Source: Cyanophora paradoxa CCMP329
Taxonomy: Eukaryota > Plantae > Glaucophyta
NCBI GenBank assembly: GCA_004431415.1
Contig: QPMI01000068.1
Span: 124,001 to 188,000 of the forward strand
Reading direction: 5' to 3'
Length of the DNA: 64,000 bases
Under the pieces are notes generated by a model. It was not told where the DNA came from and made no database searches. It saw nothing but the letters and a program-made list of their open reading frames with translations. This document shows positions 9,096 to 31,216 of the stretch, in pieces; position 1 is the first letter of the stretch; every line of letters begins with the position of its first letter. The position numbers were made by a program, and so were the translations under genes.

Positions 9096-9302
9096 AGTTT
9101 CTGTAAACTGTAATGTGGTGCTGAATGACAAATCCATCTAGCACAAGATAACCAATTTATAATAAGAGCTACACAACTCGGAAATTATAGAGTTATTATG
9201 TATGCCGAAAGAAACGACGCAATCGCCACAGCTAACCGATTCGGTCAATATCTAAATACCAATCTATACAATCCTGTCGGCGGTAGCGATCCACAACCAT
9301 AA
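9096..9302 (+). pseudogene. 3' fragment of a viral protein, probably the continuation of 302-965
   Basis: 9132-9302 reads IHLAQDNQFIIRATQLGNYRVIMYAERNDAIATANRFGQYLNTNLYNPVGGSDPQP* with no start codon of its own, in AT-rich viral-type DNA. Confidence 0.5.
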
Positions 9303-9322
9303 ATCTAAGGTATATATAGGGA

Positions 9323-9595
9323 ATGGATGAAAAAACAAGAAAGTTTATAGATACCGCTATGTCAGTCCATGGTAAGGATAAATTTGATTATACCGACACT
9401 GTTTATAAGAAAGCACAAGAAAAGGTATCTGTTAGATGCCTACAATGTAATAAAACGTTCCAAACCTACGGATTTAATCACATTAAGGGGTCAGGTTGCC
9501 GACAGTGTTCTAAAAAACACTCTCATGCATACAGAAAAAGGACAACATGGGGAATAGTCATAGAAGAGAAACCCATTATGTTGTATTTTGATTAA
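9323..9595 (+). CDS. DUF723-like Zn-ribbon protein (single repeat, no nuclease domain)
   Basis: FIxxAxxVHGxxxFDYTxxxY...VxVxCxxC...F...NHxxGxGCxxC pattern typical of this repeat in large DNA viruses and phages. Confidence 0.75.
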   Translation: MDEKTRKFIDTAMSVHGKDKFDYTDTVYKKAQEKVSVRCLQCNKTFQTYGFNHIKGSGCRQCSKKHSHAYRKRTTWGIVIEEKPIMLYFD

Positions 9596-9740
9596 ATTTT
9601 AGACATACAAATAAGAATCTTTCCACATTTGTGTCGTAGATTATACGAGTATCAAAGCAATTCGGACACGTCTTATGATAATGGATCATTATGATATCGA
9701 CAAGTTCATACGGGAATACTTTCGCTAAGATGGTGCGCAT
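9576..9740 (-). CDS. 54-aa viral ORF with CxxC (not in the ORF track)
   Basis: MRTILAKVFPYELVDIIMIHYHKTCPNCFDTRIIYDTNVERFLFVCLKFNQNTT*; fills the gap in a gene-dense region. Confidence 0.4.
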   Translation of the reverse strand: MRTILAKVFPYELVDIIMIHYHKTCPNCFDTRIIYDTNVERFLFVCLKFNQNTT

Positions 9741-9924
9741 CCTACTTAATCTCTGATATATTTATAATGGACGACCCAGTATGGAAAGAGAACCCCATAC
9801 CTAATTTCTATGAAATTGACCCAAAAGATCCATTTCAAAAATGTATATGGTTATTACATATCCTCCGAGGTATATTACTTTTAGGAGACCGAAAAAATAA
9901 AAAGAGAAGTATAGATACAGTGTA

Positions 9925-12900
9925 TCAGACACCAAATGGGATACTGTGAATGCCGTCGTTTGATATCTTCCTTTTGCTATCGATTTGGTTTAGCGCCACC
10001 CTTCTACTCTCCAAATCATATAGGCTGTGGTCTTGCCGTTGCTTGTTTCTTACTGTTACTGTTTTGGTGATGCCTTCGAATAGACATTTCTTAAAATCGT
10101 CAAAATGGACTTCCTTCGATGCTGTGCCGGACATTTTTATTTTTTCATAGGTTTCAGTTCTGAAAGCGTAAAGTTTCGATCTCAAACCCACATATTCTAA
10201 GATCTTTGCATTTGGGAATTCGTTTTTATACTTCCCCGGAGTCAATCGATTCGACAAACTATATAATGGATGATCACGATTATAATTACTCCTATCGAGG
10301 TGTTCACCTATGGCTTTCATGTCCGCATTTAGATTATCAGTTTTCAGTAATAGACAGAACGAATCGGTATCGTGGAATAGTAGCTTAGCCGTTTCCCACT
10401 TTTTCTTTACCACCTCATAGAAGAATTGATAATTATGTAACTTAGCGAAATCCAAAACGAAAGCACCAATAGCTACGGGTTTATCTAAGTTTACATGTTT
10501 CGAATACATTTCAAACGCTACGGCGTTTTCGTTTAATACATTGGTTGCTTTGATTAGTGGACTTGCGGCATATTTCTTACATAGTTTCTCACTATTGGCG
10601 ATCTTAACAGAAGAACGACCCCTACAAGATTCTAAGCATTTTCCATATATCGCATTGTTCATGAGTTTAAAAAAGTCGCTTTCGAATCTATTCCCTGACT
10701 CGTGTCGTAGTCTTGTATTCAGAGCTATGTAAGATTTCATGAAAGGAGAAGTAGCGAATGAGATCACCTTATGAATCGCTTTTATGACTACACCCTTTTT
10801 AACGAGATAGATAAGTAGAGGTTGTGAGATCACATAGTTAGTCTTTGGTGTAAATGTTGCTGTAAGTCGTGGATCTTTGGTTAATTTTTCACCTGTCATA
10901 TATAATAGGTTTTGTTGGTATTCACCTAACATATCTGTCGTAATCACTCCTTTATTCACAATAAGTGGGAAATCATAATGATCTTTGAGGGAAATAGGAT
11001 ATTCTAAATCGACCTCAATAAATGCGTTTCGTCCTTCTACTTCTTTCAGTGCCTCTGTGGTTTCTTCCCATCGATAATCACCAATAGGTAAAGGTTGGCT
11101 GAGTGCATAACCATATAGATTATTTGCGTCCAATAAAACTATATGATCATCGGGATTTTCTACCTTTGCGTATCGTGTGGGCATAGTGGCGAATCCACCC
11201 CTAATGGCTCTTTCAATAAATTCGTATTTGTCGACATCATCGATAAGTGCAATCTTTGCCTTTGTATGTTTTAACATAGCATCCCAGGATAGACCAGGAG
11301 CGCTAACATAATGACATGGATCTAATCCATATTGAGAGAACGCCAATTTACGGAATTCTTCGAATTTAAACATAAGATCGTCGACATTTGCACTTTGGAA
11401 ATCCATAAAATGCGATGCATCGATGCCCCATTGTAGCGATAGATACTGATCGAAATTTTTACTTAGAATCTCCACACGTAGCGTATCGTCTTGTTGGGCT
11501 ATCTTTCGGAATATCCCATGTCCGCATTCGTCCATTTGATCTACCACAATAGCTACCTTTGTTTGTTTAGAGATTCGCCTATGGAGGTTACAGTTTCGGC
11601 ATGCTTTCCCGATATAATCGCCCGTTTGGTGACAGTGATCGCGAACCGAAAAGTTTTCAGCTGTGAATCTTTGCAAGCAAATGTAACAATGCTTTGTGGT
11701 TCTATATTCCGCCTTCTGATCTTCTGTGAGGGGATGCATGGGAATATTTCTAAATAGGGTTTGCACTACATGAGGTCTAATTTCTATGAGTTTTGCGAAC
11801 AGCGAACCCAAAGGATCGGCTCCCTCAAAATGAAAAGCTACTACCTCTTCTCCTATTACCACTCTCAGTGACACAGCTTTAATTTCGCGTTTGGTTTTGT
11901 TTGCACTCACAGATACCGAATGATCTTCTATTTTCACGTAACAGATCACAGGAAGCCATACAGTCTTTCTTAGGTGTTTTAATCCGAATTCCATGTAAGT
12001 ATCGGGTTTTGGACATTTTCCTTTACTTTCCCTCCAATCGATGCACCGATTAGCTTCTATGTGTAGGTCTAATTTCGCCTGAGATCGGAAACGTGATAGA
12101 CAGGTTTCACAGTAATAAATGCGTCCATCACATGCTTTATCAAACGTGGTTTTAAGGAGGCGACTTAGAGACACAATAGCTACATAATGTCCTCTATTCT
12201 CCTCCGTATTTTCGATGAGTAAAAGGTTAATCTTATTCTTTCTACGTGGATTGCTCGACATATGTAACGGATAGAATGACTCCTTTTCGTTATCGGCACC
12301 GTAGATATTAACCGATAAGTCCGGGTTCTGTTCTTCGAATCGATCGATAACATCAGCATCGCATGCTACCGGAAATTCGATATTATTAAAGTTCAGTTCA
12401 TTAAGCCATCGGCGTTATTGAATGGGATCATAGCTTTTATGGCGGTTAATGTCCTTTCGATGTAGACGAGCCAAAATAGCATATTTAAAACAATCTTGTC
12501 CGTCGATATTCTTAACGTTAACGGTAGCTTTCTTTCTTGCGATCCATTCGGGAGTAGCGAAATAGCAACCACCCACCGGTGCGTAAGACATGATAACTAC
12601 CCTAAGGATCTCTAAGCGATCCAAACGATAACTATCTACTTGTTTCATTTGCTCTTGCATTTCTTGTAGAGCTTTACGCAATTCCGTATTTATATTACGG
12701 GATCGTGTGATAACAAAGTAGTCACTGTAAATGTATTTAGTAATAAAAATGCGTTCATTACTTACTTTTACGAACCGACAAACGAATGTAAGACGGACTT
12801 TAACGGCTCTTAATTGTTCTAACTTCGTTCTAATTCGCTGTGGAAGGTTAGTAGCGATGCGTTCCAAATAATCGATAGTATCGACAACTATTTGATTTCT

Positions 12901-13194
12901 TGCGCGGTAAGAATGCCACGAGTAAGCCTGATTCATTGCCTCTCCATCTTCTACTTCGGGTTCAATCGCTCCTAAGCGTTGTCCTTCGTCCATAAAGTCT
13001 TCCATTCGTTGCATACGATCGTAGAGATCATTGGCGATATCGGTGAGTTGTTGTAGTCGCGGCTTCCGATCTAAAATGGCGGCTTCTCTATCAAATTCCG
13101 CTTCGGTGATTTCACCGGTGGTTAAAAGGGTTCCCAACAGTCCGATAATCTCATTTTTCTTTTCTTTAATAAGTCTATTAGTTTGGCGGGGCAT
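9925..13194 (-). pseudogene. polB: Protein-primed family B DNA polymerase (Maverick/PLV type, ~1089 codons) with one in-frame TAA at 12415-12417
   Basis: ORFs 12415-13194 and 9925-12261 are in the same frame and the gap translates as RRWLNELNFNNIEFPV...DRFEEQN. Endonuclease-VII-like Zn motif (HCYIC...RDHCHQTG...CRNCN); polymerase motifs DANNLYG, KLMNNAIYGK, HDTDS and LRSKLYA. Confidence 0.92.
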
Positions 13195-13212
13195 CTTTGC
13201 TTTATAGGAACA

Positions 13213-13476
13213 TTATTTTTTCGGAAATGAAACGCGTTCAGGATCATAAACAGTAACTCCACGAATCCGCACTTTAACGCCCTCAGGAAGTATAAGGTTA
13301 AGTTGGACGTTATTCGCTTTGATAACATGAGTGCGGCGTTTCTTTGTTTCCAATAACGGATTATAACCGAATATCCTTTTCAAATATTCCGCTGTTGCTT
13401 CCATGGTAATTTCTTGTTTTATGTTTTGGTCTAATTCTTCATCGGTCATTTCGAAAGCAAACTTACGGGTAGCCAT
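13213..13476 (-). CDS. Small hypothetical viral protein
   Basis: MATRKFAFEMTDEEL...; sits directly upstream of polB on the same strand. Confidence 0.55.
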   Translation of the reverse strand: MATRKFAFEMTDEELDQNIKQEITMEATAEYLKRIFGYNPLLETKKRRTHVIKANNVQLNLILPEGVKVRIRGVTVYDPERVSFPKK

Positions 13477-13601
13477 TGATAACTTCGTATAGTCAAACAA
13501 AGAAATGCTTAAATATCTTGATCAATTTTTACAGATTATAGTAATAAAACACTACAAATAATATTAATAAGGATATTCACACTGAGATTTTATGTTTATA
13601 A

Positions 13602-13758
13602 AGGGGTCTTACTGAGAATGGTATGTGTAACAGGTGTAACGGGTTCATCCCAAACTTTCCCCTAGGAGGAGGTCGGCGGCTTGGAACTTTGGGGAGAACC
13701 TGTTACACCTGTTACACCTGTTACACGAGACTGAAAACCAAAAACTCCACCTGTTACA
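13602..13758. promoter_or_regulatory. Iteron hairpin, candidate replication origin (copy L)
   Basis: GTGTAACAG-type 9-mers x2 facing CTGTTACAC x3; arms 13625-13660 and 13683-13717 form an imperfect stem with a 22-nt loop; immediately downstream of the primase-helicase gene. Confidence 0.7.
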
Positions 13759-13829
13759 TTGTTAATTCTTACCATACACAGTAAGGTTATAAAAAATAGT
13801 AAGAAAGTAATCATTCAATTCATTTATAT

Positions 13830-16169
13830 TTACGCTTCTACATCATCATCCACAAATTCGTTATGGTGAATTATGGCTTTGATTCCATAATATCCACGAA
13901 TAACCGCGCCCCTTTCCCTCTTAGACTCAGACTTAACATTAAATACCTCACGCATCCGCTTACCGATGCTTGTCGGTTCCGCCTTATCATCCACTTGTCT
14001 ATATTTCTTCATGATAGAATCACTTGAAACAAAGTCGTCGCGGTTTCCTGTTCTTTCATAGGTATTTCTGATCCATTCACCGATCTTATCATTTTCAGCG
14101 AAATATTCCGATCCGTAATCGATAATAGATTGGGGCGGATTTTGCATAAGATGTGCGAGGTCTTGCGTTCTAAACATGTCCAAGAATATAGACATTTGAG
14201 CCATTTTATACTCGTCGTCATTGAGAAGATGCATTAAGGTAATATCGGCTTTCTTTTCACCTTCCTTAGGATTCGGCTTAAACACACTCTTGAATGTGCA
14301 ATAGATGAGCCGACGTAATATAGCTTCGTCAGCTTTGCTGAGAGAAAGGTTATCATTGGTGGACAGGAAGATTTGACACATCGGAATAAAGGCGACAGGA
14401 TCCTTAAAGAGAGCGCGAACCTTCATTTCGTTTCCACCTGTGATTTCCTTAATCTTACTGATTTGCAACTTATCGCCATCTTCCGCTTCGTTACTGAATA
14501 CAATTCGCTTCCCAAGAATTGCGGCAAGATCGGGCGTAGCATCTGATGAATTCTTTTTAGGCTTTGTCCAATAGCTCATGCTGATCGAGCCGTAGTAATC
14601 GCCGAATGTTTTCTTAGCCATTTCTTGCAGTAGCGACTTACCATTAGCACCTTTTCCTGACCAGAAATTGAATTTTTGGATATCAGTCCGACCTGTGAGA
14701 GCGAAAGCAAGCGCTCCGATAATATAGTTAAGCTCATCGGGATCTTCGATAATATCAGCGTAGATGGACTGAATCTTAGCGATTTTCTGACGGTCGGCAG
14801 CCATGAATTCATAGCCTACGGTCTTGCTAACCATATCATCGGGTTTTCCCTTACGGAAGGTCATAGTGTTAAGATCGAAAACACCATTCGTGAAACCGAT
14901 AATGTTAGGCACTGTATCCAATCTTTCGAAAAAGGTCGGATAACTAAACATAACGGTTAAGTCTGTCATAAGGGAAGTGCGGTAAGCAGTCTGTTTAAGA
15001 TTCTTTGCAATATTGAGAGCCAGTTTAGACTTTTCATCTAAGGATTCGCGGTTTTCTTCGTCTCTCATGGCTTTAAATCCAAGCTCATAGGAACGGTTCA
15101 TGAATGCCGCGCAAACCTTGCAGCTCATAGCGAGATAAATTCGCTTTGAGGTTTCGTCAGTCTCCCAAATACCGTAGTTAGTGTCAAATTCGAACCATGT
15201 CTTATTTGAGTAGCGATAATCATCTTTCAGGACTTCATAAGCTACTTTTGCGACATCGTAATGAGCGCCATTAGATCCAATCGCCAGATCAATAAGAGCG
15301 GAAAGCTTAACATATTGTTCTGTTTTGGTTACGATGTTAATAAATAGTTTTTTGCATCGGGAACTGTAATTAGAAACCACGAATTTGTCCTTATCGTTTC
15401 CCTGTGCTTTCATCACATACCAATTGTTCTTATCATGTGAATTATTGCAACAGGGGCATATTCCGCCTTTGTTCTGAGCAGTAAAGTTATAGCCATTTTC
15501 GGTTTGACTGATGATAGAAGGGAAATCAAAGCCAATCTCAATAAGTTTCTCATTGAGAGTGGTTAAGAATTCATTGCCTGTAATCTTTGCTTTGTCGATG
15601 TTAATAACAACATTGTGTTTATAGTTTTCGATCATCCAATTTTGGAAAGCCTCCGATGGCTCGATAAGCTCACATCCCGTAGCCCATGGCTCACGAATCC
15701 ATGTTTTACCGGGAGAGGGGCAAACATTGATAACACCAGCGGTTCCGGTAGAGCAAATCGTTTTAAAATCGATCTTCTCGTAGCCTTTGAAAGCTCCGGT
15801 TTTGTCGAATAGTTTCAGCTCATCGAACTTAGGAGGGCGTGCAAAGAACACATGGTAACCCTTCTTAGTCTTTTCAATTGGAATAGCAGCGGTGAAATCA
15901 TCAGGAAAGAGTTCTTTGAACTTGTTAAAGTCTTCTTCCTGATCGAAATCGACACAGAGGATGTTTTTAGCGAGGATACCCCACGCTACATACTTGTTTG
16001 ACTTAACCGCTTCTTCGTATCTCTTCCAATTCCATTTATCGTCCTTATGACCGAAAGCGGGAAGCTTTTCGACAGGATCGACGGGAATGAGAAGGTTTTT
16101 CGCCAGCTCATCGTTAGAGCGGAGCCAATTAGTGAGTTTCGTAAGCAGGGTTTTACTTTTGCTGTCCAT
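13830..16169 (-). CDS. PrimPol (AEP) - Zn finger - D5/SF3 helicase fusion (P4 alpha / D5-like primase-helicase)
   Basis: AEP motifs LCVDFD and TKKGYHVFF; CPCC...H...C; D5_N-like IGFTNGVFDL...GKPDDMVSKT; Walker A GKGANGKS; KRIVFSNE, KEITGG and RRL. Confidence 0.93.
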   Translation of the reverse strand: MDSKSKTLLTKLTNWLRSNDELAKNLLIPVDPVEKLPAFGHKDDKWNWKRYEEAVKSNKYVAWGILAKNILCVDFDQEEDFNKFKELFPDDFTAAIPIEKTKKGYHVFFARPPKFDELKLFDKTGAFKGYEKIDFKTICSTGTAGVINVCPSPGKTWIREPWATGCELIEPSEAFQNWMIENYKHNVVINIDKAKITGNEFLTTLNEKLIEIGFDFPSIISQTENGYNFTAQNKGGICPCCNNSHDKNNWYVMKAQGNDKDKFVVSNYSSRCKKLFINIVTKTEQYVKLSALIDLAIGSNGAHYDVAKVAYEVLKDDYRYSNKTWFEFDTNYGIWETDETSKRIYLAMSCKVCAAFMNRSYELGFKAMRDEENRESLDEKSKLALNIAKNLKQTAYRTSLMTDLTVMFSYPTFFERLDTVPNIIGFTNGVFDLNTMTFRKGKPDDMVSKTVGYEFMAADRQKIAKIQSIYADIIEDPDELNYIIGALAFALTGRTDIQKFNFWSGKGANGKSLLQEMAKKTFGDYYGSISMSYWTKPKKNSSDATPDLAAILGKRIVFSNEAEDGDKLQISKIKEITGGNEMKVRALFKDPVAFIPMCQIFLSTNDNLSLSKADEAILRRLIYCTFKSVFKPNPKEGEKKADITLMHLLNDDEYKMAQMSIFLDMFRTQDLAHLMQNPPQSIIDYGSEYFAENDKIGEWIRNTYERTGNRDDFVSSDSIMKKYRQVDDKAEPTSIGKRMREVFNVKSESKRERGAVIRGYYGIKAIIHHNEFVDDDVEA

Positions 16170-16358
16170 CGTTGCGCGTTCTACTTTAACGAAAGATAAA
16201 AATTTTTCTTGTTGATCATTTTTTGGCGCCTTGTCTTTAAATGCCCTACACTTTTTTTCTCGATGCTAAAAATCCGGATATTGTAACGCGATTACCGATT
16301 ATCGTCGGTAAGCCGCTCGAAAAATAAGTAATGATGTTTCAGCGGCAATAGCGGCATT

Positions 16359-16709
16359 TCAGTATTTGGGGGGACGTCCACGCTTTGCACTATGGATACC
16401 TTCCAATTCTTTGCGACGGTAATAGTTCTCCAAAGCTTGCTTTTTTTTGAATTCGCGGTATTCGGGGTCTTCCTCATACCTCTTTCGCATTTTCAGCACT
16501 TCACGGATCCGATAATTTAACCCATCCGCACTCTTAGGATTAAGTTTAACCTTTGGTGGTGAGTTAACAATTTCATCGCTGTCACTTTCAAATTCGAATT
16601 CAATAACGCTAACATCATCGGCGATAGCAGCCATTCTTACTTTCAGCACAGAAAATATTTTATCAGTTTGTAATATCGCTGTTTCTTTAAATACTTTTAG
16701 GGTTGTCAT
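16359..16709 (-). CDS. Small basic protein with C-terminal AT-hook, probable DNA-binding protein
   Basis: Ends KRGRPPKY; also KRYEEDPEYREFKKKQALENYYRRK. Start may be at 16709 or 16634. Confidence 0.6.
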   Translation of the reverse strand: MTTLKVFKETAILQTDKIFSVLKVRMAAIADDVSVIEFEFESDSDEIVNSPPKVKLNPKSADGLNYRIREVLKMRKRYEEDPEYREFKKKQALENYYRRKELEGIHSAKRGRPPKY

Positions 16710-16836
16710 TTTTTGGCGACCGGACAAGCTCTTGTCTACGTTTTTCTATCGCAGATGCAACGGCGTAAATCTGACGTTTCGCTAAAATAATATTATAGAC
16801 TTCTTCGAGCATTTTCCGATACTTATTACAAATATT

Positions 16837-17085
16837 TTAATTACCGCGATGTTCAAACGCTTGTCTTCGTAAATCATCACTTTGATCGACAGAAAACCGG
16901 CGACCATTTGTAGCGGGTTCTGAATGTGTGGAATCTACCGAATGTCTCCGGGACTCTCTACCTTCCGTTACATTATCTTCGGTATCTGAAAAACCAAGTT
17001 CTACGGTTGTATCACAGCATCCGCTGTGACAATTGCTTACAATGTGCAGGTTAAACATCTCTATGATCTTTTGGAGAAAGTCCAT
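16837..17085 (-). CDS. 82-aa hypothetical protein, copy 1 (copy 2 at 21829-22076 with a 1-bp deletion; copy 3 at 29316-29564)
   Basis: MDFLQKIIEMFNLHIVSNCHSGCC...; identical ORF in copies 1 and 3. Confidence 0.6.
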   Translation of the reverse strand: MDFLQKIIEMFNLHIVSNCHSGCCDTTVELGFSDTEDNVTEGRESRRHSVDSTHSEPATNGRRFSVDQSDDLRRQAFEHRGN

Positions 17086-17112
17086 CGAGAATCCTTTATT
17101 AATCAGATATAT

Positions 17113-17843
17113 TTAAAGCCAAACTCTCCGCTTGTATACTGTTGGTGCTACGGCTTTCTCTACTTCCGCTTTGGTAGCGCCAGGCTCTATGGTTCCCTTC
17201 TTTTGGTATTCATTTCATCCACCGCTTGCTCATCTATTTGTGTCTCTTTCTTCCGAATAAATTGAGTATCAGGAAGTCCCGTAATACCCATTCGGAAAAC
17301 CTCTTTACGTAACATCTCCTTCATTTTAGCGCGTTCTTTCTTCTCCATTACATACTGTTCCAGCGCACTCGACTTAGCTTCGAGATCACGTAGTTTAGCG
17401 GTCATTGTGTCCCATTCAGCCTTTGGCATTCGGTGGACGTTTTGAGTCGGAGCGACTTTATAAGTTACTTCTCCCGCCATCGATTGTATAACCTTGTCTG
17501 ATTCTTTCGAAACACCTTGACCTTTGCAGGCAAGTGCAAGATCTTGTAGACCAAGACCGCGATCATCGGCGGCACCGATAATACGACGCGCACCCTCACC
17601 GACCGCCTTCATCTTCGATGCATCCGGTGATACATTGAGTGTTTCACTTGTCGATGCTTGCGGTGCTTTGTCCGCCGGCGATTCTTCATAAGCAGCATTT
17701 AAAGGATCTTCTTCGGGTTGCGATGGTTTCACTTGATTAACTCCGTCAAATTTCATAGGTGTAGTATTAAGTGATCCGTAACTTTCACCACCGGAATATG
17801 AAATAGCCCCAGCGGGGACACCTACTTTACGTTTTGGCGGCAT
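17113..17843 (-). CDS. 243-aa hypothetical protein, copy 1 (1-bp homopolymer deletion near the 3' end)
   Basis: Matches the intact copy at 29592-30323. Confidence 0.7.
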
Positions 17844-17871
17844 TGTATCTTTAACTATATGGAAGATATTT

Positions 17872-18653
17872 TTAAAGTCCTCTCTTATATCGCATCAATT
17901 TATTCGAATGAACAGCGCTTTTAATCTCTTTTGGCGCTTCCTCCTTCTCGGGCGGTTTTAATTCGTCTTCTTTCTTTTTAGGTTTGCGATGGAACCGTGG
18001 GAATCCAAAGTTTTTAACGAGATCCGCTTTATCTACATAATACTTTACCGAATAATCAGCGGATGACCAAATGAGAAACTGATATGAATGAACGTATTCC
18101 TCAAACATCTTATAAAAAGCGTCTTTATCACGCATTATATTGTATTCTTCCTCAATTGCTTCAAGTTCTTTTCGATTAGCGGCGCTAAGAAACATTGCAT
18201 AATCCGAATTAACGCGAATAGTGGAAGAAACCTTACGCAGTTTCTGAGTTATGCAGATGCAGGACACCATACTATGGCGTCCACGCGAATATACAGAGCC
18301 AATTATTTTATCACGGGTTAGGTCTACTAACTCATTATCTATCAAATCATCCAGGATAATACACAATTGGTTAACGGGTTCCCCTTTCTCTATTTTCTCT
18401 TGTCTTTCATCGAGAAGTTTAGCGATGTAAGGCGCATCCCATTTACCGAGCTGTAATGTAGCGACATTATCCCAGAAATGATTAAAGCTAGTTCCACTTA
18501 TAACTAAACTACATCTAACTTTTTAGCATCGTGTAACTGTTTTAACCAATACTTTACCGCTTCCGACTTACCAGTAGCCGATTTTCCGATTGCAAGGACG
18601 CGAAAAGGTGGTTTTATCATTTCAGCGGCATTAAACTCTTCTAAATCCGCCAT
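17872..18653 (-). CDS. A32-like DNA packaging ATPase, copy 1 (1-bp homopolymer deletion at ~18507)
   Basis: Matches intact copies 2 and 3. Confidence 0.85.
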
Positions 18654-18735
18654 GGTGTTGTAGATCTTCTTAATAAAGATAGATAAAAATAACGAAATAT
18701 GACTAAATAATGGTAACAAACACATACACTGTTTA

Positions 18736-20131
18736 TTAGAGATTGACTCGCCTTAATCCGTCGCGGTCCGCTATGAGCATCGTGTGCATGAGAGCGCGCA
18801 CGTTAACAGTAAGGCGCATGTTTTGTGGACGTAGAGGGTTAGGAAACTTGATGAGGAGTTAGTTAGATCGACATAACCACTTTGGGCGATGTTACGAATC
18901 GCCTTCTCTCCGTCCAGACAGAAAGGCAGACCGGACAGGACATAGCGGTTAGCTTCCTTGTCCATGTTAGAACACTTGAATGCATCGGCGATGAGTTCCG
19001 CACCTTTGAGGAGTGGGATAGGCTCCGTGGAATAAAGACGCTGTCCGTTAATCTCCACCGTGTATGTGATATCCTTCGAGTCCGCATATGTTTTAAGGAC
19101 ACTGTGGGAGCCGCTGTTATCCTGACCAGTTTTAAGGTAATCACGAACCGAGAATAGAAGAGCGAAAGCAAGCCCCGACATTTGGCTAATGTTAATACGG
19201 TTAGGTTGGTTATTGCCGTTGGCGGCAACATCGAAAGCATCGACGTAGCCGATGTCGATAGCCGGAATCGCAATACCAGTAGTCTTAACCTTTTCAATGA
19301 CCGTAGCAAACAGCTCATCGGAAACATTGACGGCATGCATGTAAAGGCGTGGGTTGGTGATCATAATAGTATCCACAGGTGCAGATGATGGAATGGACAG
19401 ACCGGTAATGGTTCCAGTTGTGATGTTTTGACCAACATTGGCAAGAGTTACACCGGTGGCGCTTCCGAGACCATCATTAGCGGTTTGATCGGCAGCAGCT
19501 CCGACAACCGGAAGAGCGCGACCACCATAAGAAGTCTCAATGAATCCACCCTTAGCGGGGTCACGGAACCATGCGGTAACTACCATTTCCCCTGAGAGCG
19601 CGCCAAGGGGTAGATAGCTATTTAACCACGGCACCGGGATTTCCACAAAGAATGATCCACCAAGTCGGTTAGTTCCGTGTTGTGGGATGCCGTGTAGGAA
19701 GCCAGCCGAACGTTTCTTTTTCGCTAGCTGATCCTCCGAATAGTAAACCAGAGGGAAGTGAGCGAGGAAATCAGAAGGCACAGTGAAAAGGTAAGAGCCA
19801 TACGAGATTTCGAGACGCTCTACGAGAGCGCCGACGGGGCGGACATAACCATTACGAACCAAATCGGTATCACCGATGAAACCCGCAATTTCGCTAAGAT
19901 CAAAAGCGAGTTCCAGCTTACCGATAAAGTTGTAACGTGGGAGTTTGAAACTTACTCGTTGCGCAGCGTTGTTAGGGAAGGTTGTCGATGGGCTAACAGT
20001 AACGAGAACGGGTTTAGTCTTCGATTCCAGACCAAGCATAAGCGAGTTATCGAGGAAGAACGCCTTCGCCTCTTCGGGGTGGTTAGCGCCTCTTTGAGGG
20101 AAAGACGTTGGAGGGTTGTTGTGACGTCCAT
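18736..20131 (-). CDS. Major capsid protein, copy 1 (two 1-bp homopolymer deletions)
   Basis: Matches the intact 465-aa copy at 31217-32614. Confidence 0.8.
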
Positions 20132-20182
20132 GTTTTCTCTTTTACAATAATAAAATATAAAAATTCTGTGAATGATCCTTAA

Positions 20183-21193
20183 TTATCCAAAATTGCAAAT
20201 CACCGGATAATTTGGGTGAGTTTCTCTCATTCTCATTTTGAAATACTCATAAATAGGATCACCGGCGGGTTCTTCACCATATCGGATCTCGAAAGTTAAA
20301 TGGACAGGTTGCCCCTCGAAATCAATTAATTCGTTTTGAGCATTCACAATTTCTACGGACATTTGAGAGATTGCGAATGGTTTCCCGTAATACTTGTATA
20401 ACGGGTTTGCTTCTGTTGAATTATAAACAACGTGTTCCGCAAAGTCTTTATCTTGCACCACGAGTTTATGGAAGTATCCAGATAGGAGACCATCGGCACA
20501 TTGAACGAGGTCACCCAGTTCTTTTACTCTTACGAATAATACATTATCTTTGCAACTCTCAGTAGGGAATGTCGAGATGATACCATGAACATTAGCACCT
20601 GTAAAGATAGGATCATATTCAGTTGAGTAAATGTTAGATTTGATAAATCGGTTACCGGCTCTTCCGGCATCGAGACCAAGCATACGACCGTGTCGGTTTG
20701 ATTTTTCAGCCATCGAACTAGAAGGATCCTTAGCAGTTGTGAATGCTATGTAAAATTCATGAGGAGCATAGAATATTACGTGTTTCTCTACGGTATCCCA
20801 TTTACACCTTATTTGAGGATCAGGTGTTAAACCAGCAAACCGAGTATTAATACGGTTTACTAATTCCTGATGCGTATTAATTACTAAGCTTCCGCTACTT
20901 TGACCGGGACGAATTGAGCGCCAAACATCAAAACCGGGAGCGGGAGCATTGGTAGAGTTGATCGCTGAATTAGCGATACTAAAATTAATAGTGAAAGAAT
21001 CAGTAACTGTGACATCTCCGGGGACACTTTCATCGCTGATAAGAGGAATGGAGTTATAGAATTCCGCCGAAACAAGTCGGACAGCTCTTACATTCTCATA
21101 CATCTTTGGTAATTCAGCGATAAACTTAGACGTCGGCGCATCGAGATTAGGAGCCTGTCTAAATGATGAAACTTCGACATATTCGACCGGCAT
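20183..21193 (-). CDS. Minor capsid (penton) protein 1, copy 1
   Basis: VEVSSFR...SKFIAELPKMYENVRAVRLVSAEFYNS and VEIVNAQNELIDFEGQPVHLTFEI, a single-jelly-roll penton signature. Confidence 0.8.
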   Translation of the reverse strand: MPVEYVEVSSFRQAPNLDAPTSKFIAELPKMYENVRAVRLVSAEFYNSIPLISDESVPGDVTVTDSFTINFSIANSAINSTNAPAPGFDVWRSIRPGQSSGSLVINTHQELVNRINTRFAGLTPDPQIRCKWDTVEKHVIFYAPHEFYIAFTTAKDPSSSMAEKSNRHGRMLGLDAGRAGNRFIKSNIYSTEYDPIFTGANVHGIISTFPTESCKDNVLFVRVKELGDLVQCADGLLSGYFHKLVVQDKDFAEHVVYNSTEANPLYKYYGKPFAISQMSVEIVNAQNELIDFEGQPVHLTFEIRYGEEPAGDPIYEYFKMRMRETHPNYPVICNFG

Positions 21194-21222
21194 GTTTCTT
21201 TAATCTATATTCATATAATAAA

Positions 21223-21689
21223 ATGATTCGTCTTATCAATGTCGATAGTAGAGATCGACAACAAGGACAAAAAGAAAACTCTTATAGGGTTGCACTCACA
21301 AGACCAATAACCAAACCACGGCAATGTCGCGTTTTGTATGCTGAGATTCCGAACAGTATATATAATTCAATAGGAACCGATTATATAACGATTCGTTATA
21401 ATATCGATGGTGTTTATATAAATCAGCAACTGTTTCCATTACCGAGTGGTTACATAAATCAAGGACACTTTGGCGTGACACAACCATATAATTATGGTTT
21501 GAACTTTGCGGTTACTGAGAATATATTATTTAAGATCTACTACAATCCGACGACATACAAATTAGAGTTTTATAGTAATTTCGCTTTTGAACTCATCGCC
21601 GGAAATAATAGGATAGCTAAGTTATTGGGTCTCAGTGCAACAACATTATTAGGTAGCGCAGGACAGATAATAGATAATAATAGGTCTTT
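21223..21689 (+). pseudogene. Penton 2, 5' half, truncated at junction J1
   Basis: Identical to 26215 onward up to ...IIDNNRS, then jumps to the sequence of 16694; the chimeric frame ends at 21864. Confidence 0.85.
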
Positions 21690-22103
21690 TAGGGTTGTCA
21701 TTTTTTGGCGACCGGACAAGCTCTTGTCTACGTTTTTCTATCGCAGATGCAACGGCGTAAATCTGACGTTTCGCTTAAATAATATTATAGACTTCTTCGA
21801 GCATTTTCCGATACTTATTACAAATATTTTAATTACCGCGATGTTCAAACGCTTGTCTTCGTAAATCATCACTTTGATCGACAGAAAACCGGCGACCATT
21901 TGTAGCGGGTTCTGAATGTGTGGAATCTACCGAATGTCTCCGGACTCTCTACCTTCCGTTACATTATCTTCGGTATCTGAAAAACCAAGTTCTACGGTTG
22001 TATCACAGCATCCGCTGTGACAATTGCTTACAATGTGCAGGTTAAACATCTCTATGATCTTTTGGAGAAAGTCCATCGAGAATCCTTTATTAATCAGATA
22101 TAT

Positions 22104-22834
22104 TTAAAGCCAAACTCTCCGCTTGTATACTGTTGGTGCTACGGCTTTCTCTACTTCCGCTTTGGTAGCGCCAGGCTCTATGGTTCCCTTCTTTTTGGTA
22201 TTCATTTCATCCACCGCTTGCTCATCTATTTGTGTCTCTTTCTTCCGAATAAATTGAGTATCAGGAAGTCCCGTAATACCCATTCGGAAAACCTCTTTAC
22301 GTAACATCTCCTTCATTTTAGCGCGTTCTTTCTTCTCCATTACATACTGTTCCAGCGCACTCGACTTAGCTTCGAGATCACGTAGTTTAGCGGTCATTGT
22401 GTCCCATTCAGCCTTTGGCATTCGGTGGACGTTTTGAGTCGGAGCGACTTTATAAGTTACTTCTCCCGCCATCGATTGTATAACCTTGTCTGATTCTTTC
22501 GAAACACCTTGACCTTTGCAGGCAAGTGCAAGATCTTGTAGACCAAGACCGCGATCATCGGCGGCACCGATAATACGACGCGCACCCTCACCGACCGCCT
22601 TCATCTTCGATGCATCCGGTGATACATTGAGTGTTTCACTTGTCGATGCTTGCGGTGCTTTGTCCGCCGGCGATTCTTCATAAGCAGCATTTAAAGGATC
22701 TTCTTCGGGTTGCGATGGTTTCACTTGATTAACTCCGTCAAATTTCATAGGTGTAGTATTAAGTGATCCGTAACTTTCACCACCGGAATATGAAATAGCC
22801 CCAGCGGGACACCTACTTTACGTTTTGGCGGCAT
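22104..22834 (-). CDS. 243-aa hypothetical protein, copy 2 (1-bp deletion near the 5' end)
   Basis: Matches 29592-30323. Confidence 0.7.
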
Positions 22835-22862
22835 TGTATCTTTAACTATATGGAAGATATTT

Positions 22863-23645
22863 TTAAAGTCCTCTCTTATATCGCATCAATTTATTCGAAT
22901 GAACAGCGCTTTTAATCTCTTTTGGCGCTTCCTCCTTCTCGGGCGGTTTTAATTCGTCTTCTTTCTTTTTAGGTTTGCGATGGAACCGTGGGAATCCAAA
23001 GTTTTTAACGAGATCCGCTTTATCTACATAATACTTTACCGAATAATCAGCGGATGACCAAATGAGAAACTGATATGAATGAACGTATTCCTCAAACATC
23101 TTATAAAAAGCGTCTTTATCACGCATTATATTGTATTCTTCCTCAATTGCTTCAAGTTCTTTTCGATTAGCGGCGCTAAGAAACATTGCATAATCCGAAT
23201 TAACGCGAATAGTGGAAGAAACCTTACGCAGTTTCTGAGTTATGCAGATGCAGGACACCATACTATGGCGTCCACGCGAATATACAGAGCCAATTATTTT
23301 ATCACGGGTTAGGTCTACTAACTCATTATCTATCAAATCATCCAGGATAATACACAATTGGTTAACGGGTTCCCCTTTCTCTATTTTCTCTTGTCTTTCA
23401 TCGAGAAGTTTAGCGATGTAAGGCGCATCCCATTTACCGAGCTGTAATGTAGCGACATTATCCCAGAAATGATTAAAGCTAGTTCCACTTATAACTAAAA
23501 CTACATCTAACCTTTTAGCATCGTGTAACTGTTTTAACCAATACTTTACCGCTTCCGACTTACCAGTAGCCGATTTTCCGATTGCAAGGACGCGAAAAGG
23601 TGGTTTTATCATTTCAGCGGCATTAAACTCTTCTAAATCCGCCAT
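22863..23645 (-). CDS. A32-like DNA packaging ATPase, copy 2
   Basis: Walker A IGKSATGKS, Walker B IILDD, RGRH arginine finger and ITQ motif. Likely start MADLEEF. Confidence 0.92.
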   Translation of the reverse strand: MADLEEFNAAEMIKPPFRVLAIGKSATGKSEAVKYWLKQLHDAKRLDVVLVISGTSFNHFWDNVATLQLGKWDAPYIAKLLDERQEKIEKGEPVNQLCIILDDLIDNELVDLTRDKIIGSVYSRGRHSMVSCICITQKLRKVSSTIRVNSDYAMFLSAANRKELEAIEEEYNIMRDKDAFYKMFEEYVHSYQFLIWSSADYSVKYYVDKADLVKNFGFPRFHRKPKKKEDELKPPEKEEAPKEIKSAVHSNKLMRYKRGL

Positions 23646-23727
23646 GGTGTTGTAGATCTTCTTAATAAAGATAGATAAAAATAACGAAATATGACTAAAT
23701 AATGGTAACAAACACATACACTGTTTA

Positions 23728-25123
23728 TTAGAGATTGACTCGCCTTAATCCGTCGCGGTCCGCTATGAGCATCGTGTGCATGAGAGCGCGCACGTTAACA
23801 GTAAGGCGCATGTTTTGTGGGACGTAGAGGGTTAGGAAACTTGATGAGGAGTTAGTTAGATCGACATAACCACTTTGGGCGATGTTACGAATCGCCTTCT
23901 CTCCGTCCAGACAGAAAGGCAGACCGGACAGGACATAGCGGTTAGCTTCCTTGTCCATGTTAGAACACTTGAATGCATCGGCGATGAGTTCCGCACCTTT
24001 GAGGAGTGGGATAGGCTCCGTGGAATAAAGACGCTGTCCGTTAATCTCCACCGTGTATGTGATATCCTTCGAGTCCGCATATGTTTTAAGGACACTGTGG
24101 GAGCCGCTGTTATCCTGACCAGTTTTAAGGTAATCACGAACCGAGAATAGAAGAGCGAAAGCAAGCCCCGACATTTGGCTAATGTTAATACGGTTAGGTT
24201 GGTTATTGCCGTTGGCGGCAACATCGAAAGCATCGACGTAGCCGATGTCGATAGCCGGAATCGCAATACCAGTAGTCTTAACCTTTTCAATGACCGTAGC
24301 AAACAGCTCATCGGAAACATTGACGGCATGCATGTAAAGGCGTGGGTTGGTGATCATAATAGTATCCACAGGTGCAGATGATGGAATGGACAGACCGGTA
24401 ATGGTTCCAGTTGTGATGTTTTGACCAACATTGGCAAGAGTTACACCGGTGGCGCTTCCGAGACCATCATTAGCGGTTTGATCGGCAGCAGCTCCGACAA
24501 CCGGAAGAGCGCGACCACCATAAGAAGTCTCAATGAATCCACCCTTAGCGGGGTCACGGAACCATGCGGTAACTACCATTTCCCCTGAGAGCGCGCCAAG
24601 GGGTAGATAGCTATTTAACCACGGCACCGGGATTTCCACAAAGAATGATCCACCAAGTCGGTTAGTTCCGTGTTGTGGGATGCCGTGTAGGAAGCCAGCC
24701 GAACGTTTCTTTTTCGCTAGCTGATCCTCCGAATAGTAAACCAGAGGGAAGTGAGCGAGGAAATCAGAAGGCACAGTGAAAAGGTAAGAGCCATACGAGA
24801 TTTCGAGACGCTCTACGAGAGCGCCGACGGGCGGACATAACCATTACGAACCAAATCGGTATCACCGATGAAACCCGCAATTTCGCTAAGATCAAAAGCG
24901 AGTTCCAGCTTACCGATAAAGTTGTAACGTGGGAGTTTGAAACTTACTCGTTGCGCAGCGTTGTTAGGGAAGGTTGTCGATGGGCTAACAGTAACGAGAA
25001 CGGGTTTAGTCTTCGATTCCAGACCAAGCATAAGCGAGTTATCGAGGAAGAACGCCTTCGCCTCTTCGGGGTGGTTAGCGCCTCTTTGAGGGAAAGACGT
25101 TGGAGGGTTGTTGTGACGTCCAT
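23728..25123 (-). CDS. Major capsid protein, copy 2 (two 1-bp homopolymer deletions)
   Basis: Matches 31217-32614. Confidence 0.8.
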
Positions 25124-25174
25124 GTTTTCTCTTTTACAATAATAAAATATAAAAATTCTGTGAATGATCCTTAA

Positions 25175-26185
25175 TTATCCAAAATTGCAAATCACCGGAT
25201 AATTTGGGTGAGTTTCTCTCATTCTCATTTTGAAATACTCATAAATAGGATCACCGGCGGGTTCTTCACCATATCGGATCTCGAAAGTTAAATGGACAGG
25301 TTGCCCCTCGAAATCAATTAATTCGTTTTGAGCATTCACAATTTCTACGGACATTTGAGAGATTGCGAATGGTTTCCCGTAATACTTGTATAACGGGTTT
25401 GCTTCTGTTGAATTATAAACAACGTGTTCCGCAAAGTCTTTATCTTGCACCACGAGTTTATGGAAGTATCCAGATAGGAGACCATCGGCACATTGAACGA
25501 GGTCACCCAGTTCTTTTACTCTTACGAATAATACATTATCTTTGCAACTCTCAGTAGGGAATGTCGAGATGATACCATGAACATTAGCACCTGTAAAGAT
25601 AGGATCATATTCAGTTGAGTAAATATTAGATTTGATAAATCGGTTACCGGCTCTTCCGGCATCGAGACCAAGCATACGACCGTGTCGGTTTGATTTTTCA
25701 GCCATCGAACTAGAAGGATCCTTAGCAGTTGTGAATGCTATGTAAAATTCATGAGGAGCATAGAATATTACGTGTTTCTCTACGGTATCCCATTTACACC
25801 TTATTTGAGGATCAGGTGTTAAACCAGCAAACCGAGTATTAATACGGTTTACTAATTCCTGATGCGTATGAATTACTAAGCTTCCGCTACTTTGACCGGG
25901 ACGAATTGAGCGCCAAACATCAAAACCGGGAGCGGGAGCATTGGTAGAGTTGATCGCTGAATTAGCGATACTAAAATTAATAGTGAAAGAATCAGTAACT
26001 GTGACATCTCCGGGGACACTTTCATCGCTGATAAGAGGAATGGAGTTATAGAATTCCGCCGAAACAAGTCGGACAGCTCTTACATTCTCATACATCTTTG
26101 GTAATTCAGCGATAAACTTAGACGTCGGCGCATCGAGATTAGGAGCCTGTCTAAATGATGAAACTTCGACATATTCGACCGGCAT
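25175..26185 (-). CDS. Minor capsid (penton) protein 1, copy 2
   Basis: As copy 1 with one N-to-H substitution. Confidence 0.8.
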   Translation of the reverse strand: MPVEYVEVSSFRQAPNLDAPTSKFIAELPKMYENVRAVRLVSAEFYNSIPLISDESVPGDVTVTDSFTINFSIANSAINSTNAPAPGFDVWRSIRPGQSSGSLVIHTHQELVNRINTRFAGLTPDPQIRCKWDTVEKHVIFYAPHEFYIAFTTAKDPSSSMAEKSNRHGRMLGLDAGRAGNRFIKSNIYSTEYDPIFTGANVHGIISTFPTESCKDNVLFVRVKELGDLVQCADGLLSGYFHKLVVQDKDFAEHVVYNSTEANPLYKYYGKPFAISQMSVEIVNAQNELIDFEGQPVHLTFEIRYGEEPAGDPIYEYFKMRMRETHPNYPVICNFG

Positions 26186-26214
26186 GTTTCTTTAATCTAT
26201 ATTCATATAATAAA

Positions 26215-27126
26215 ATGATTCGTCTTATCAATGTCGATAGTAGAGATCGACAACAAGGACAAAAAGAAAACTCTTATAGGGTTGCACTCACAAGACCAAT
26301 AACCAAACCACGGCAATGTCGCGTTTTGTATGCTGAGATTCCGAACAGTATATATAATTCAATAGGAACCGATTATATAACGATTCGTTATAATATCGAT
26401 GGTGTTTATATAAATCAGCAACTGTTTCCATTACCGAGTGGTTACATAAATCAAGGACACTTTGGCGTGACACAACCATATAATTATGGTTTGAACTTTG
26501 CGGTTACTGAGAATATATTATTTAAGATCTACTACAATCCGACGACATACAAATTAGAGTTTTATAGTAATTTCGCTTTTGAACTCATCGCCGGAAATAA
26601 TAGGATAGCTAAGTTATTGGGTCTCAGTGCAACAACATTATTAGGTAGCGCAGGACAGATAATAGATAATAATAGGTCTTTATATGCTCCCGAAAATATC
26701 TTATTTTACGCGGGGACTCCGATAACACCAGATCACCCACAGTGGGGGATAACATTCGAGGGAGCGGAGTTAGTAGCGGCACCGATGGCTTTTAAAGCGG
26801 TTAGTCCAAAGATGGCGGACATGAACGCTGAACAATACATTTATATGCACATTAAAGAAATTGCCACATTTGCTTCGAACCATCATGTAGTTCCGAAATC
26901 GCAACCACAGAACCAAGGCGCAATTTTGCGTTTACAATTAAGTCAGGACATCGGAAAGTATATATACCATAGCGGAGAGCATGGCGAATACATAAAAATA
27001 AACGATCGTAATTTGGTGATTAATGAGTTAACGGTAGAATTTCGTGATTATTACGGTGATCTTGTTGATATGAACGGAATCGATAATTCGTTTGAGTTGG
27101 AGTTTTTAGCGTTAGGTATTGATTAG
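26215..27126 (+). CDS. Minor capsid (penton) protein 2, intact (303 aa)
   Basis: INVDSRDR...YRVAL...LYAEIPNSIYN and LTVEFRDYYGDLVDMNGIDNSFELEF, classic PLV/NCLDV penton motifs. Confidence 0.88.
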   Translation: MIRLINVDSRDRQQGQKENSYRVALTRPITKPRQCRVLYAEIPNSIYNSIGTDYITIRYNIDGVYINQQLFPLPSGYINQGHFGVTQPYNYGLNFAVTENILFKIYYNPTTYKLEFYSNFAFELIAGNNRIAKLLGLSATTLLGSAGQIIDNNRSLYAPENILFYAGTPITPDHPQWGITFEGAELVAAPMAFKAVSPKMADMNAEQYIYMHIKEIATFASNHHVVPKSQPQNQGAILRLQLSQDIGKYIYHSGEHGEYIKINDRNLVINELTVEFRDYYGDLVDMNGIDNSFELEFLALGID

Positions 27127-27830
27127 TCTTCTTTGTCATCGGTGAATGGGTCATGATCACCGAATATATCCACAAGTATTATATTATTATCATTTAGATC
27201 GGCTATATACCATCCTGTTTCTTTTGTCCAAATTGCACCATGTTTATGTAGCAATTTACGGAGACTTTTACGGCTTCTGATGACTAAACCGAATTCTTCG
27301 AATTTATCATGAACACTTGAAAGATCACGTTTAGGCACGTTTAGATAAACCCGACGGTCTAACTTTTCTCTTTCCAGCCGATGTGCAATATAATCAATTT
27401 CATGCCTTACACGAACCAGAAGAAAACATAATTCGTTTTGTAGCTCGATTTCATCATTGAAAACCTCCGTTAAATCCAAGATTTTGCGATAATGTGCAAT
27501 GTTAACCCTTTCATCCTCTTCTATTTCATCATCATCCATACGACAAAACCTATTATCATAGGTATGAACATATACTTCTTTGGTATTTGACGGATAGTAA
27601 CCAATAGATGAGATATGAGTAAGTTTAAGATCATCACCGAATCCATGCCGTCCGACTTGAATAGCATGACTAACTATATGCATTTGATCAAGATGAAACT
27701 TATCTATTTTAAGAATTTCTGAAAAAGCCGGGTTTCCTTCTATTTTAATATCGAAAACACGCCCTCTTATGTCATCAGCATCTCTAATAATACGTCTCGT
27801 TCCATCAGGTGCAATTTCGACGCGAGCCAT
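27123..27830 (-). CDS. 235-aa protein with DUF5710-like C-terminus, copy a
   Basis: RVYLNVP...KHGAIWTKETGWYI resembles the DUF5710 pattern YLNVP...GARWD...WY. Confidence 0.55.
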   Translation of the reverse strand: MARVEIAPDGTRRIIRDADDIRGRVFDIKIEGNPAFSEILKIDKFHLDQMHIVSHAIQVGRHGFGDDLKLTHISSIGYYPSNTKEVYVHTYDNRFCRMDDDEIEEDERVNIAHYRKILDLTEVFNDEIELQNELCFLLVRVRHEIDYIAHRLEREKLDRRVYLNVPKRDLSSVHDKFEEFGLVIRSRKSLRKLLHKHGAIWTKETGWYIADLNDNNIILVDIFGDHDPFTDDKED

Positions 27831-28306
27831 CGTTACTTATCTCTTACACAGAAAATATTTTTCTTTCTTAACCCTCTATATCACAACTTCCTTAAATCAA
27901 TTTGTGTAGCTCACGGGGCTTTCATTTTTCGCACGATATACAGTGAGACTTTCATTTTTACTGTCGATAAAATCAGGTTACCTGAGTGTTAAACGTCAAG
28001 GTTTTCGCAAAATATGAAAAAGTTAACGATAGAACAGACAGTAAAACAGGTTGCTGTAAGTGTTTATTGATGAACAACAAAACAATTATTTGTAAATACT
28101 CAATAAACTGATTTACTGTTATATTTAAAGATCTCTTCTTGTAGCGGAGCGAAAGAAATGTAATATATCATCGTTAATAGAAGAGAGGATAATAGGTATC
28201 TTTGGTGGATCTCCACATACGGAGAGACATAAAGTATCGAGATTTCCGACACGGTAATAAGTGGTAAAAGAAGATGTAACAGGTTAATTAATTGTGATTC
28301 AGTGTA

Positions 28307-28379
28307 GTGTAACAGGTGTAACAGGTTCTCCCCAAAGTTCCAAGCCGCCGACCTCCTCCTAGGGGAAAGTTTGGGATGA
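28307..28379. promoter_or_regulatory. Iteron hairpin, truncated copy ending at junction J2
   Basis: Identical to 35797-35869, then CAT, then internal penton-1 sequence. Confidence 0.8.
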
Positions 28380-28382
28380 CAT

Positions 28383-29176
28383 TACTTTGACCGGGACGAA
28401 TTGAGCGCCAAACATCAAAACCGGGAGCGGGAGCATTGGTAGAGTTGATCGCTGAATTAGCGATACTAAAATTAATAGTGAAAGAATCAGTAACTGTGAC
28501 ATCTCCGGGGACACTTTCATCGCTGATAAGAGGAATGGAGTTATAGAATTCCGCCGAAACAAGTCGGACAGCTCTTACATTCTCATACATCTTTGGTAAT
28601 TCAGCGATAAACTTAGACGTCGGCGCATCGAGATTAGGAGCCTGTCTAAATGATGAAACTTCGACATATTCGACCGGCATGTTTCTTTAATCTATATTCA
28701 TATAATAAAATGATTCGTCTTATCAATGTCGATAGTAGAGATCGACAACAAGGACAAAAAGAAAACTCTTATAGGGTTGCACTCACAAGACCAATAACCA
28801 AACCACGGCAATGTCGCGTTTTGTATGCTGAGATTCCGAACAGTATATATAATTCAATAGGAACCGATTATATAACGATTCGTTATAATATCGATGGTGT
28901 TTATATAAATCAGCAACTGTTTCCATTACCGAGTGGTTACATAAATCAAGGACACTTTGGCGTGACACAACCATATAATTATGGTTTGAACTTTGCGGTT
29001 ACTGAGAATATATTATTTAAGATCTACTACAATCCGACGACATACAAATTAGAGTTTTATAGTAATTTCGCTTTTGAACTCATCGCCGGAAATAATAGGA
29101 TAGCTAAGTTATTGGGTCTCAGTGCAACAACATTATTAGGTAGCGCAGGACAGATAATAGATAATAATAGGTCTTT
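28383..29176. pseudogene. 5' fragments of penton 1 (28383-28680, minus) and penton 2 (28710-29176, plus) between J2 and the second J1
   Basis: Copy of 20896-21689. Confidence 0.88.
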
Positions 29177-29591
29177 TAGGGTTGTCATTTTTTGGCGACC
29201 GGACAAGCTCTTGTCTACGTTTTTCTATCGCAGATGCAACGGCGTAAATCTGACGTTTCGCTTAAATAATATTATAGACTTCTTCGAGCATTTTCCGATA
29301 CTTATTACAAATATTTTAATTACCGCGATGTTCAAACGCTTGTCTTCGTAAATCATCACTTTGATCGACAGAAAACCGGCGACCATTTGTAGCGGGTTCT
29401 GAATGTGTGGAATCTACCGAATGTCTCCGGGACTCTCTACCTTCCGTTACATTATCTTCGGTATCTGAAAAACCAAGTTCTACGGTTGTATCACAGCATC
29501 CGCTGTGACAATTGCTTACAATGTGCAGGTTAAACATCTCTATGATCTTTTGGAGAAAGTCCATCGAGAATCCTTTATTAATCAGATATAT

Positions 29592-30323: not shown

Positions 30324-30351
30324 TGTATCTTTAACTATATGGAAGATATTT

Positions 30352-31134: not shown

Positions 31135-31216
31135 GGTGTTGTAGATCTTCTTAATAAAGATAGATAAAAATAACGAAATATGACTAAATAATGGTAACAA
31201 ACACATACACTGTTTA

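Follow-up and report, generated by a model that had tools for sequence, protein, structure and literature searches.

The exonuclease (Exo) motifs of protein-primed PolB enzymes (pPolBs) are conserved across polintons according to the cited passages of PMC10748475; for the general setting we refer to the sections of PMC10120064 drawn on here. In excerpts of PMC11161782, the pPolB of mavirus is described as keeping no more than a remnant of its exonuclease domain, and exonuclease loss is said to accompany helicase gain, independently in the mavirus and Tlr types, a statement repeated in portions of PMC13215967 and PMC12721341. Passages of two 2026 preprints report frequent module swaps and elements carrying both a pPolB and a D5 helicase, a combination interpreted there as a transient replacement state. 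The duplex-opening tunnel of phi29 is built from the exonuclease domain together with TPR2 (excerpts of PMC4974454 and PMC6351526), and mutants of the exonuclease site are defective in strand displacement (PMC6351526, same excerpt). Highly derived enzymes are the basis of the published idea that, in small DNA viruses of eukaryotes, helicase gain compensates for exonuclease loss. Our literature search returned no description of a Maverick-type polymerase with a deletion such as the one reported below, and supplements, which lay outside that search, may list the element.

A polinton-like provirus with a Maverick-type polymerase

The window analysed here is the whole stretch of 64,000 nucleotides of Cyanophora paradoxa CCMP329 DNA (contig QPMI01000068.1), and it contains an AT-rich element that is a polinton-like provirus (Table 1). 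Of the polinton-like-virus gene set, an A32 gene, a likely major capsid gene and a putative minor capsid gene were present, the minor capsid label being given from size and position. No terminal inverted repeats were found at the AT-rich ends of the element, no rve integrase was matched among the element ORFs scanned (this copy may be incomplete; a search for integrase patterns produced a single match, by chance, within the helicase), and neither a protease gene nor a stand-alone exonuclease gene was found in the element. The capsid protein is likely of the double jelly-roll type, as suggested by Atlas features with a weak recognition score, and the other copies of its gene are frameshifted. 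The Sputnik/virophage MCP Pfam had no match in the element, though the same family was detected in other loci: virophage-type capsid genes occur at L052:10119-12044 and L067:13596-15323, on contigs with exonuclease-intact Maverick-type polymerases. On another polinton-like contig, an ORF with phospholipase A2-like and ADP-ribosyltransferase-like domains was seen (L060:6201-7595).

Table 1. Features of the element and its polymerase gene, in window coordinates
Feature	Position	Strand	Details
AT-rich polinton-like provirus	9100..36520	.	about 40% GC in 60-79% GC host DNA; ends approximate
pPolB gene, 1089 codons	9925..13194	-	terminal-protein-like region, vOTU, exonuclease remnant with Zn/EndoVII-like insert, polymerase
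Polymerase motifs A, B, C, intact, with TPR1 and TPR2 regions between	10360..11130	-	DANNLYG 11110-11130; KLMNNAIYGK 10639-10668; HDTDS 10360-10374; from alignment and predicted model
Deletion junction and ExoIII remnant	11377..11421	-	in-frame deletion of ~94 residues; DASHFMDF 11398-11421, then SANVDD 11377-11394; Asp to Asn; new Asp three residues on
ExoII remnant VDQMDECGH	11518-11544	-	catalytic Asp deleted; His/Asn/Tyr replaced
Endonuclease-VII-like His-Me/Zn insert	11560..11748	-	conserved residues kept; Pfam PF02945 E 1.7e-4 (below cut-off); PHROG endonuclease VII E 1e-6
ExoI remnant YVKIE	11926-11940	-	Asp to Lys; Glu kept (E423)
vOTU-like protease region	12130..12573	-	Cys (DCFKY 12481-12495) and His (GHYVAI 12175-12192) kept; label inferred by comparison with an excerpt of PMC11161782
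In-frame TAA splitting the window copy of pPolB	12415..12417	-	absent from the four sequencing runs compared
Small ORF, 102 codons stop to stop	13213..13521	-	no match in family search
Hairpin with TGTTACAC repeats	13586..13760	.	DNA fold z -4.06; inverted copy 35797-35930 (92.5%), half copy 28307-28379
PrimPol-D5 (superfamily 3) primase-helicase, 779 aa	13830..16169	-	open frame; Pfam Prim-Pol, D5_N, DUF5906; PHROGs primase E 1e-63
A32-type packaging ATPase	30352..31206	-	Pfam; further copies 22863-23717 and, broken, near 17872-18700
Likely major capsid protein, 465 aa	31217..32614	-	ESM Atlas features 0.98 to viral clusters, Capsid_N on 12-18% of members; weak recognition score

The capsid module (16694-35869) contains near-identical tandem repeats of 5.0 kb and 7.5 kb (99.8-99.9%, small indels between), a repeat junction falls in the hairpin loop (28379/35869), and these repeats may be a true amplification or a long-read assembly artefact. 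At the left end of the element, an ORF at 9320-9595 matches HNH-endonuclease-associated families, and a one-base insertion at 9319 is carried by part of the contigs from four runs. Past the right repeat come about 600 bases of AT-rich non-coding DNA (35930-36520), and where these meet the host DNA there is an inverted repeat of 72% (36218-36288/36451-36521). The host flank holds a 317-base exact repeat (37099-37415 and 47221-47537), a long, very GC-rich degenerate satellite (38000-46500) and an ORF (63388-63999) that matches RecE/YqaJ-like recombination exonucleases and perhaps belongs to a second viral insertion.

The ORF list and the alignment identify the 1089-codon frame as a Maverick-type pPolB gene, with 30-37% identity to hundreds of Maverick-type pPolBs; a PDB sequence search with it returned 0 matches. 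The gene starts upstream of an 829-aa ORF, and the part upstream of that ORF aligns at 37% identity with the N-terminus of its closest relative, P0002. The terminal-protein-like region, which is outside the folded model, aligns with Maverick-type N-termini. At the site of the in-frame TAA another base is found in four of the four runs (single covering contig each), and 6 of the 9 main ORFs use TAA as a normal stop, which also rules out its recoding as a sense codon; therefore the stop is a property of the window copy or of the assembly. The catalytic aspartates of motifs A, B and C are present, KxY is intact as well, and the TPR1 and TPR2 blocks are free of deletions relative to homologues. 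The first-pass annotation had recorded the three polymerase motifs correctly, and it had missed the N-terminal part, the in-frame stop and the published helicase link; its suggestion of a repurposed polymerase found no support, all polymerase, TPR and vOTU features being kept.

Erosion of the exonuclease

Comparison was made with an alignment of 420 homologous proteins, in which the counts for each motif cover only proteins with a residue at the column or in ungapped register. All four exonuclease acids are present in 287 of the 289 proteins with a residue at all four columns, whereas in the window pPolB the ExoI Glu is the sole survivor of the DEDD catalytic set (ExoI D/E, ExoII D, ExoIII Y/D). 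The ExoI Asp, which is D in all 289 other proteins with a residue there, is K; the ExoII Asp (D in 311/314 homologues) is deleted; and the ExoIII Tyr (263/265) and Asp (265/265, in-register reads among 417) are Phe and Asn. Between the Asp of a conserved 'DS' and the Phe of 'FE' the spacer is 19 residues long, whereas its median length is 113 in the homologues that cover it (325 of 418); an in-frame loss of ~94 residues follows from this, which takes in the SL and KGxxPY segments. The eroded motifs of the first annotation, YVKIE, VDQMDECGH and DASHFMDF, the last at the junction, were all recovered, on the minus strand, and the earlier estimate of some 100 residues missing in frame is borne out.

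Replacement acids at the ExoI or ExoII Asp positions, named beforehand as a sign of a rebuilt site, were sought in the sequences, and none is common to the window pPolB and P0002. The acids that these two proteins share in the exonuclease region are also acidic in intact proteins, except for an Asp three residues beyond the ExoIII position (ExoIII+3). Judged from its sequence, the window pPolB is thus very probably devoid of proofreading, in agreement with the first-pass proposal of a naturally proofreading-deficient enzyme.

The 829-residue part of the pPolB gave a predicted model with pLDDT 89.6 that matches phi29 polymerase (Z 21.6, rmsd 3.2, 478 aligned; Foldseek E 1e-15) from the first exonuclease strand onward, the next family following at Z 10.4. 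Modelled alone (pLDDT 87.6), the exonuclease remnant finds its match in the exonuclease domain of phi29 (Z 9.8, rmsd 3.1, 129 aligned) and also in RNase T (Z 8.1). Both models were guided by alignments of intact proteins, and they predict that the remnant keeps an RNase H-like DEDD exonuclease fold.

The loss is shared by a relative

P0002 (1083 aa, open frame; 46% identity to the window pPolB over full coverage) was the only close match in three full-length searches, the others reaching 30-39% identity. It shares with the window pPolB the 19-residue spacer, the one-residue deletion of the ExoII Asp and the ExoIII Asn, and its ExoI acids are Gln and Lys, with Lys at the Glu position. The two proteins form a clade with 100/100 support on columns outside the exonuclease (24 rows) and with support 100 among 134 rows. 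The polymerase blocks of the two are 41-67% identical (45-67% for motif A, TPR1, fingers, TPR2 and palm), compared with 54% for the vOTU and for the Zn insert, 42% for the C-terminal remnant and 20% for the ExoI block.

At least 20 sequencing runs of one organism (15 named studies and four further rows) carry 0.55-0.64 of the words sampled from 9925-13600. Variants were analysed in four runs, on the best-supported 40 of 446 variant rows, which is why no dN/dS estimate is given. Of these 40 rows, 23 fall in the pPolB gene, three of them within the exonuclease region; with the stop site excluded 22 remain, 21 of them synonymous where 21% would be expected (p 1e-13), and in the helicase gene the best-supported rows are synonymous in 9 of 11 cases. 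No insertion or joint was seen at the deletion junction among the rows listed for the four runs, and contigs at 11380 extend at least 42 bases each way, crossing the junction without a listed gap but by less than the 31 bases required as threshold; beyond the loose ends listed, rare copies with a complete exonuclease domain may exist. The same deletion in a protein of 46% identity, together with the synonymous variation, therefore indicates at the sequence level that the exonuclease loss is lineage-fixed and not the decay of one copy; copy-specific decay had been foreseen as the outcome if close relatives kept a full exonuclease, and the closest relative found shares the loss.

A further Maverick-type polymerase, P0177/P0421 (Logan), has eroded ExoI, ExoII and ExoIII motifs and a 31-residue spacer. 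It has in common with the window pPolB and P0002 the new ExoIII+3 Asp, a Trp ahead of the DS strand and, in the thumb KxKG, a residue other than Lys at the position of the second Lys. In free trees P0177 falls outside the window/P0002 clade; a single origin of P0177 and the pair was recovered in 0% of 200 bootstrap trees, with an AU p of 0.38, and in another tree the AU p was 0.67, the constrained tree scoring higher; neither value rejects it. P0177 shares 7 of 90 derived columns with the pair, a number matched by 18 of 275 intact proteins. On these sequence comparisons, a separate exonuclease loss in P0177 appears somewhat more likely than a single origin with the pair. P0076 was considered as a further loss on account of its 52-residue spacer and rejected, as it keeps the ExoII and ExoIII Asp and closely resembles the intact P0011.

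No sister element was found in viral-contig scans using the polymerase, capsid, helicase and P0177, and a viral-contig scan with P0002 gave one relative, which is exonuclease-intact. Metagenome and alignment scans yielded 35 and 33 loci, in which ExoIII YxxxD was present in 26 of 27 readable ORFs, the remaining one being edge-cut. Shorter proteins were searched as well, and the best 120 of 500 matches contained no close fragment.

An adjacent PrimPol-D5 helicase gene

The helicase gene lies 640 bases upstream of pPolB on the same strand and is intact, as had been noted from the sequence. The window helicase had 0 matches in 69 loci around related polymerases, where A32, the positive control, was found in 12. 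These control loci are partial: 29 of at least 10 kb contain 144 ORFs, the 76 longest of which (26 loci) were scanned, and D5_N, DUF5906 and Prim-Pol were each absent from these 76 long ORFs of partial loci. The control loci hold an rve integrase in 13 cases and one superfamily-2 helicase (L066). The pairing of an exonuclease-less Maverick-type polymerase with such a helicase is seen in one element only.

Contig sequence connects the small ORF with the hairpin and the hairpin with the helicase end; in run X1, one contig joins 13239 to 13770, that is, the polymerase side to the helicase end. An inverted-repeat pair (13586/35930) flanks the helicase and capsid genes, with the polymerase lying beyond it. 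Just upstream of the pPolB start codon the contigs diverge, with loose ends at 13198, and the summed depth is higher for the polymerase than for the helicase, by a measure unsuited to ranking. The hairpin behind the helicase gene, inverted 22 kb away, is possibly a replication origin; among 104 viral loci carrying the motif there are 8 in which its 19-mer follows DUF927/DUF3987 genes at a distance of about 100-400 bases, and the window helicase had 0 matches in these 104 loci.

Discussion

We propose, with a probability of roughly 0.6, that the window pPolB is a protein-primed replicase without proofreading, whose trimmed exonuclease domain serves as a scaffold and for which the D5 helicase supplies unwinding. 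The terminal-protein region would prime synthesis and then be cut off by the vOTU, and the trimmed domain is predicted to be retained as a fold scaffold. Strand displacement would be weakened because in phi29 it depends on the exonuclease domain; the D5 helicase would make up for this weakness, and copying fidelity would be lower. On its sequence features, the pPolB is likely a working but error-prone copier, and it probably leans on the adjacent helicase gene.

It could be argued that the main role left to the pPolB is protein-primed initiation, or that it is being lost, with the PrimPol-helicase and a host or giant-virus polymerase doing most of the copying from a hairpin origin. The PrimPol domain, the strong hairpin with short repeats directly behind the helicase gene, the recurrence of the hairpin 19-mer behind DUF927/DUF3987 genes and the interpretation of double replication genes as transient elsewhere (excerpt of a 2026 preprint) fit this scheme, but it is an unlikely one, given that all polymerase motifs have survived a protein divergence of 54%, as have TPR2 and the thumb, and that the synonymous variation misfits a gene being lost. 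An account in which the polymerase cassette forms a module of its own or is swapped freely, with the helicase no partner and the exonuclease loss otherwise caused, draws on the position of the polymerase outside the inverted repeats, its variable upstream ends and differing depth, and the frequent swapping of replication modules among PLVs reported in part of a 2026 preprint. We consider it improbable in view of the single continuous AT-rich block with both genes on one strand, the contigs that link small ORF to hairpin and hairpin to helicase end or join both sides directly, and the absence of such a helicase from the scanned loci of intact relatives.

Editing might also survive in another way, the metal site being rebuilt with the ExoIII+3 Asp or the EndoVII-like insert acting as nuclease. 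The new Asp occurs in all three exonuclease-less proteins and in 0 of 265 intact ones, and the His-Me residues of the insert are kept; however, neither the ExoI nor the ExoII Asp remains, P0002 has Lys in place of the ExoI Glu, the new Asp sits in the model at the start of a shortened helix, where it would fit helix capping, and the insert is equally present in exonuclease-intact polymerases. A single Asp cannot replace the two-metal site of DEDD nucleases, and we judge survival of editing very unlikely. The decay of a single, dead integrated copy, or else faulty assembly, to which the in-frame stop of the window copy and the frameshifts in the duplicated capsid genes might point, is hardly credible as a general explanation: for the exonuclease loss it is refuted by the same deletion in P0002, and the synonymous variation and the clean junction among the rows listed for four runs also speak against it, so that it stands for the stop codon only.

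More tentatively, and with the odds somewhat against it, proofreading may have been lost repeatedly in Maverick-type polymerases by the same route, each time after helicase gain, with the catalytic Asp gone, the helical block before ExoIII excised and a new Asp arising at the same spot. The window lineage would then be a living halfway stage from the full polinton to the stripped mavirus and Tlr types, and its enzyme a naturally occurring mutator replicase in an endogenous virus with multiple copies.

The window pPolB is a near-complete Maverick-type enzyme whose exonuclease is dead and trimmed and whose architecture is near that of intact relatives, and it makes the compensation idea testable side by side, in fidelity, strand displacement and helicase dependence. 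The concrete reason suggested by the reading favoured here is loss of strand displacement rather than a fidelity trade-off, and faster sequence change is predicted in the window virus family.

Comparison with known systems

Like the Maverick/Polinton (adintovirus-type) pPolBs, the window pPolB has a terminal-protein-like region, the vOTU Cys and His, an EndoVII-like insert, motifs A, B and C and TPR1/2, but its exonuclease motifs are lost and ~94 aa deleted, and its element carries a PrimPol-D5 helicase, with integrase and protease not found. With mavirus it has in common a protein-primed PolB without working exonuclease and an S3H gene in the element (excerpts of PMC11161782 and PMC13215967). 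In contrast to the mavirus remnant, it keeps ~210 residues, including the Zn insert, in a predicted phi29-domain fold; its nearest relatives are intact Maverick-type enzymes (in trees without mavirus), and no virophage capsid family was matched. The Tlr1/transpoviron pPolB-S1H fusions, with a TP-vOTU-palm arrangement in the published excerpts, have likewise lost the exonuclease and gained a helicase, whereas the window helicase belongs to superfamily 3 and is a separate gene with PrimPol, and the exonuclease fold is largely kept. Laboratory mutants of the phi29 exonuclease site share the fold (Z 21.6) and the loss of catalytic aspartates, while the loss in the window is natural, lineage-fixed and accompanied by a large deletion. 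Exonuclease loss with helicase gain is thus already published for the mavirus and Tlr types, and the window element is a new, less advanced instance of it.
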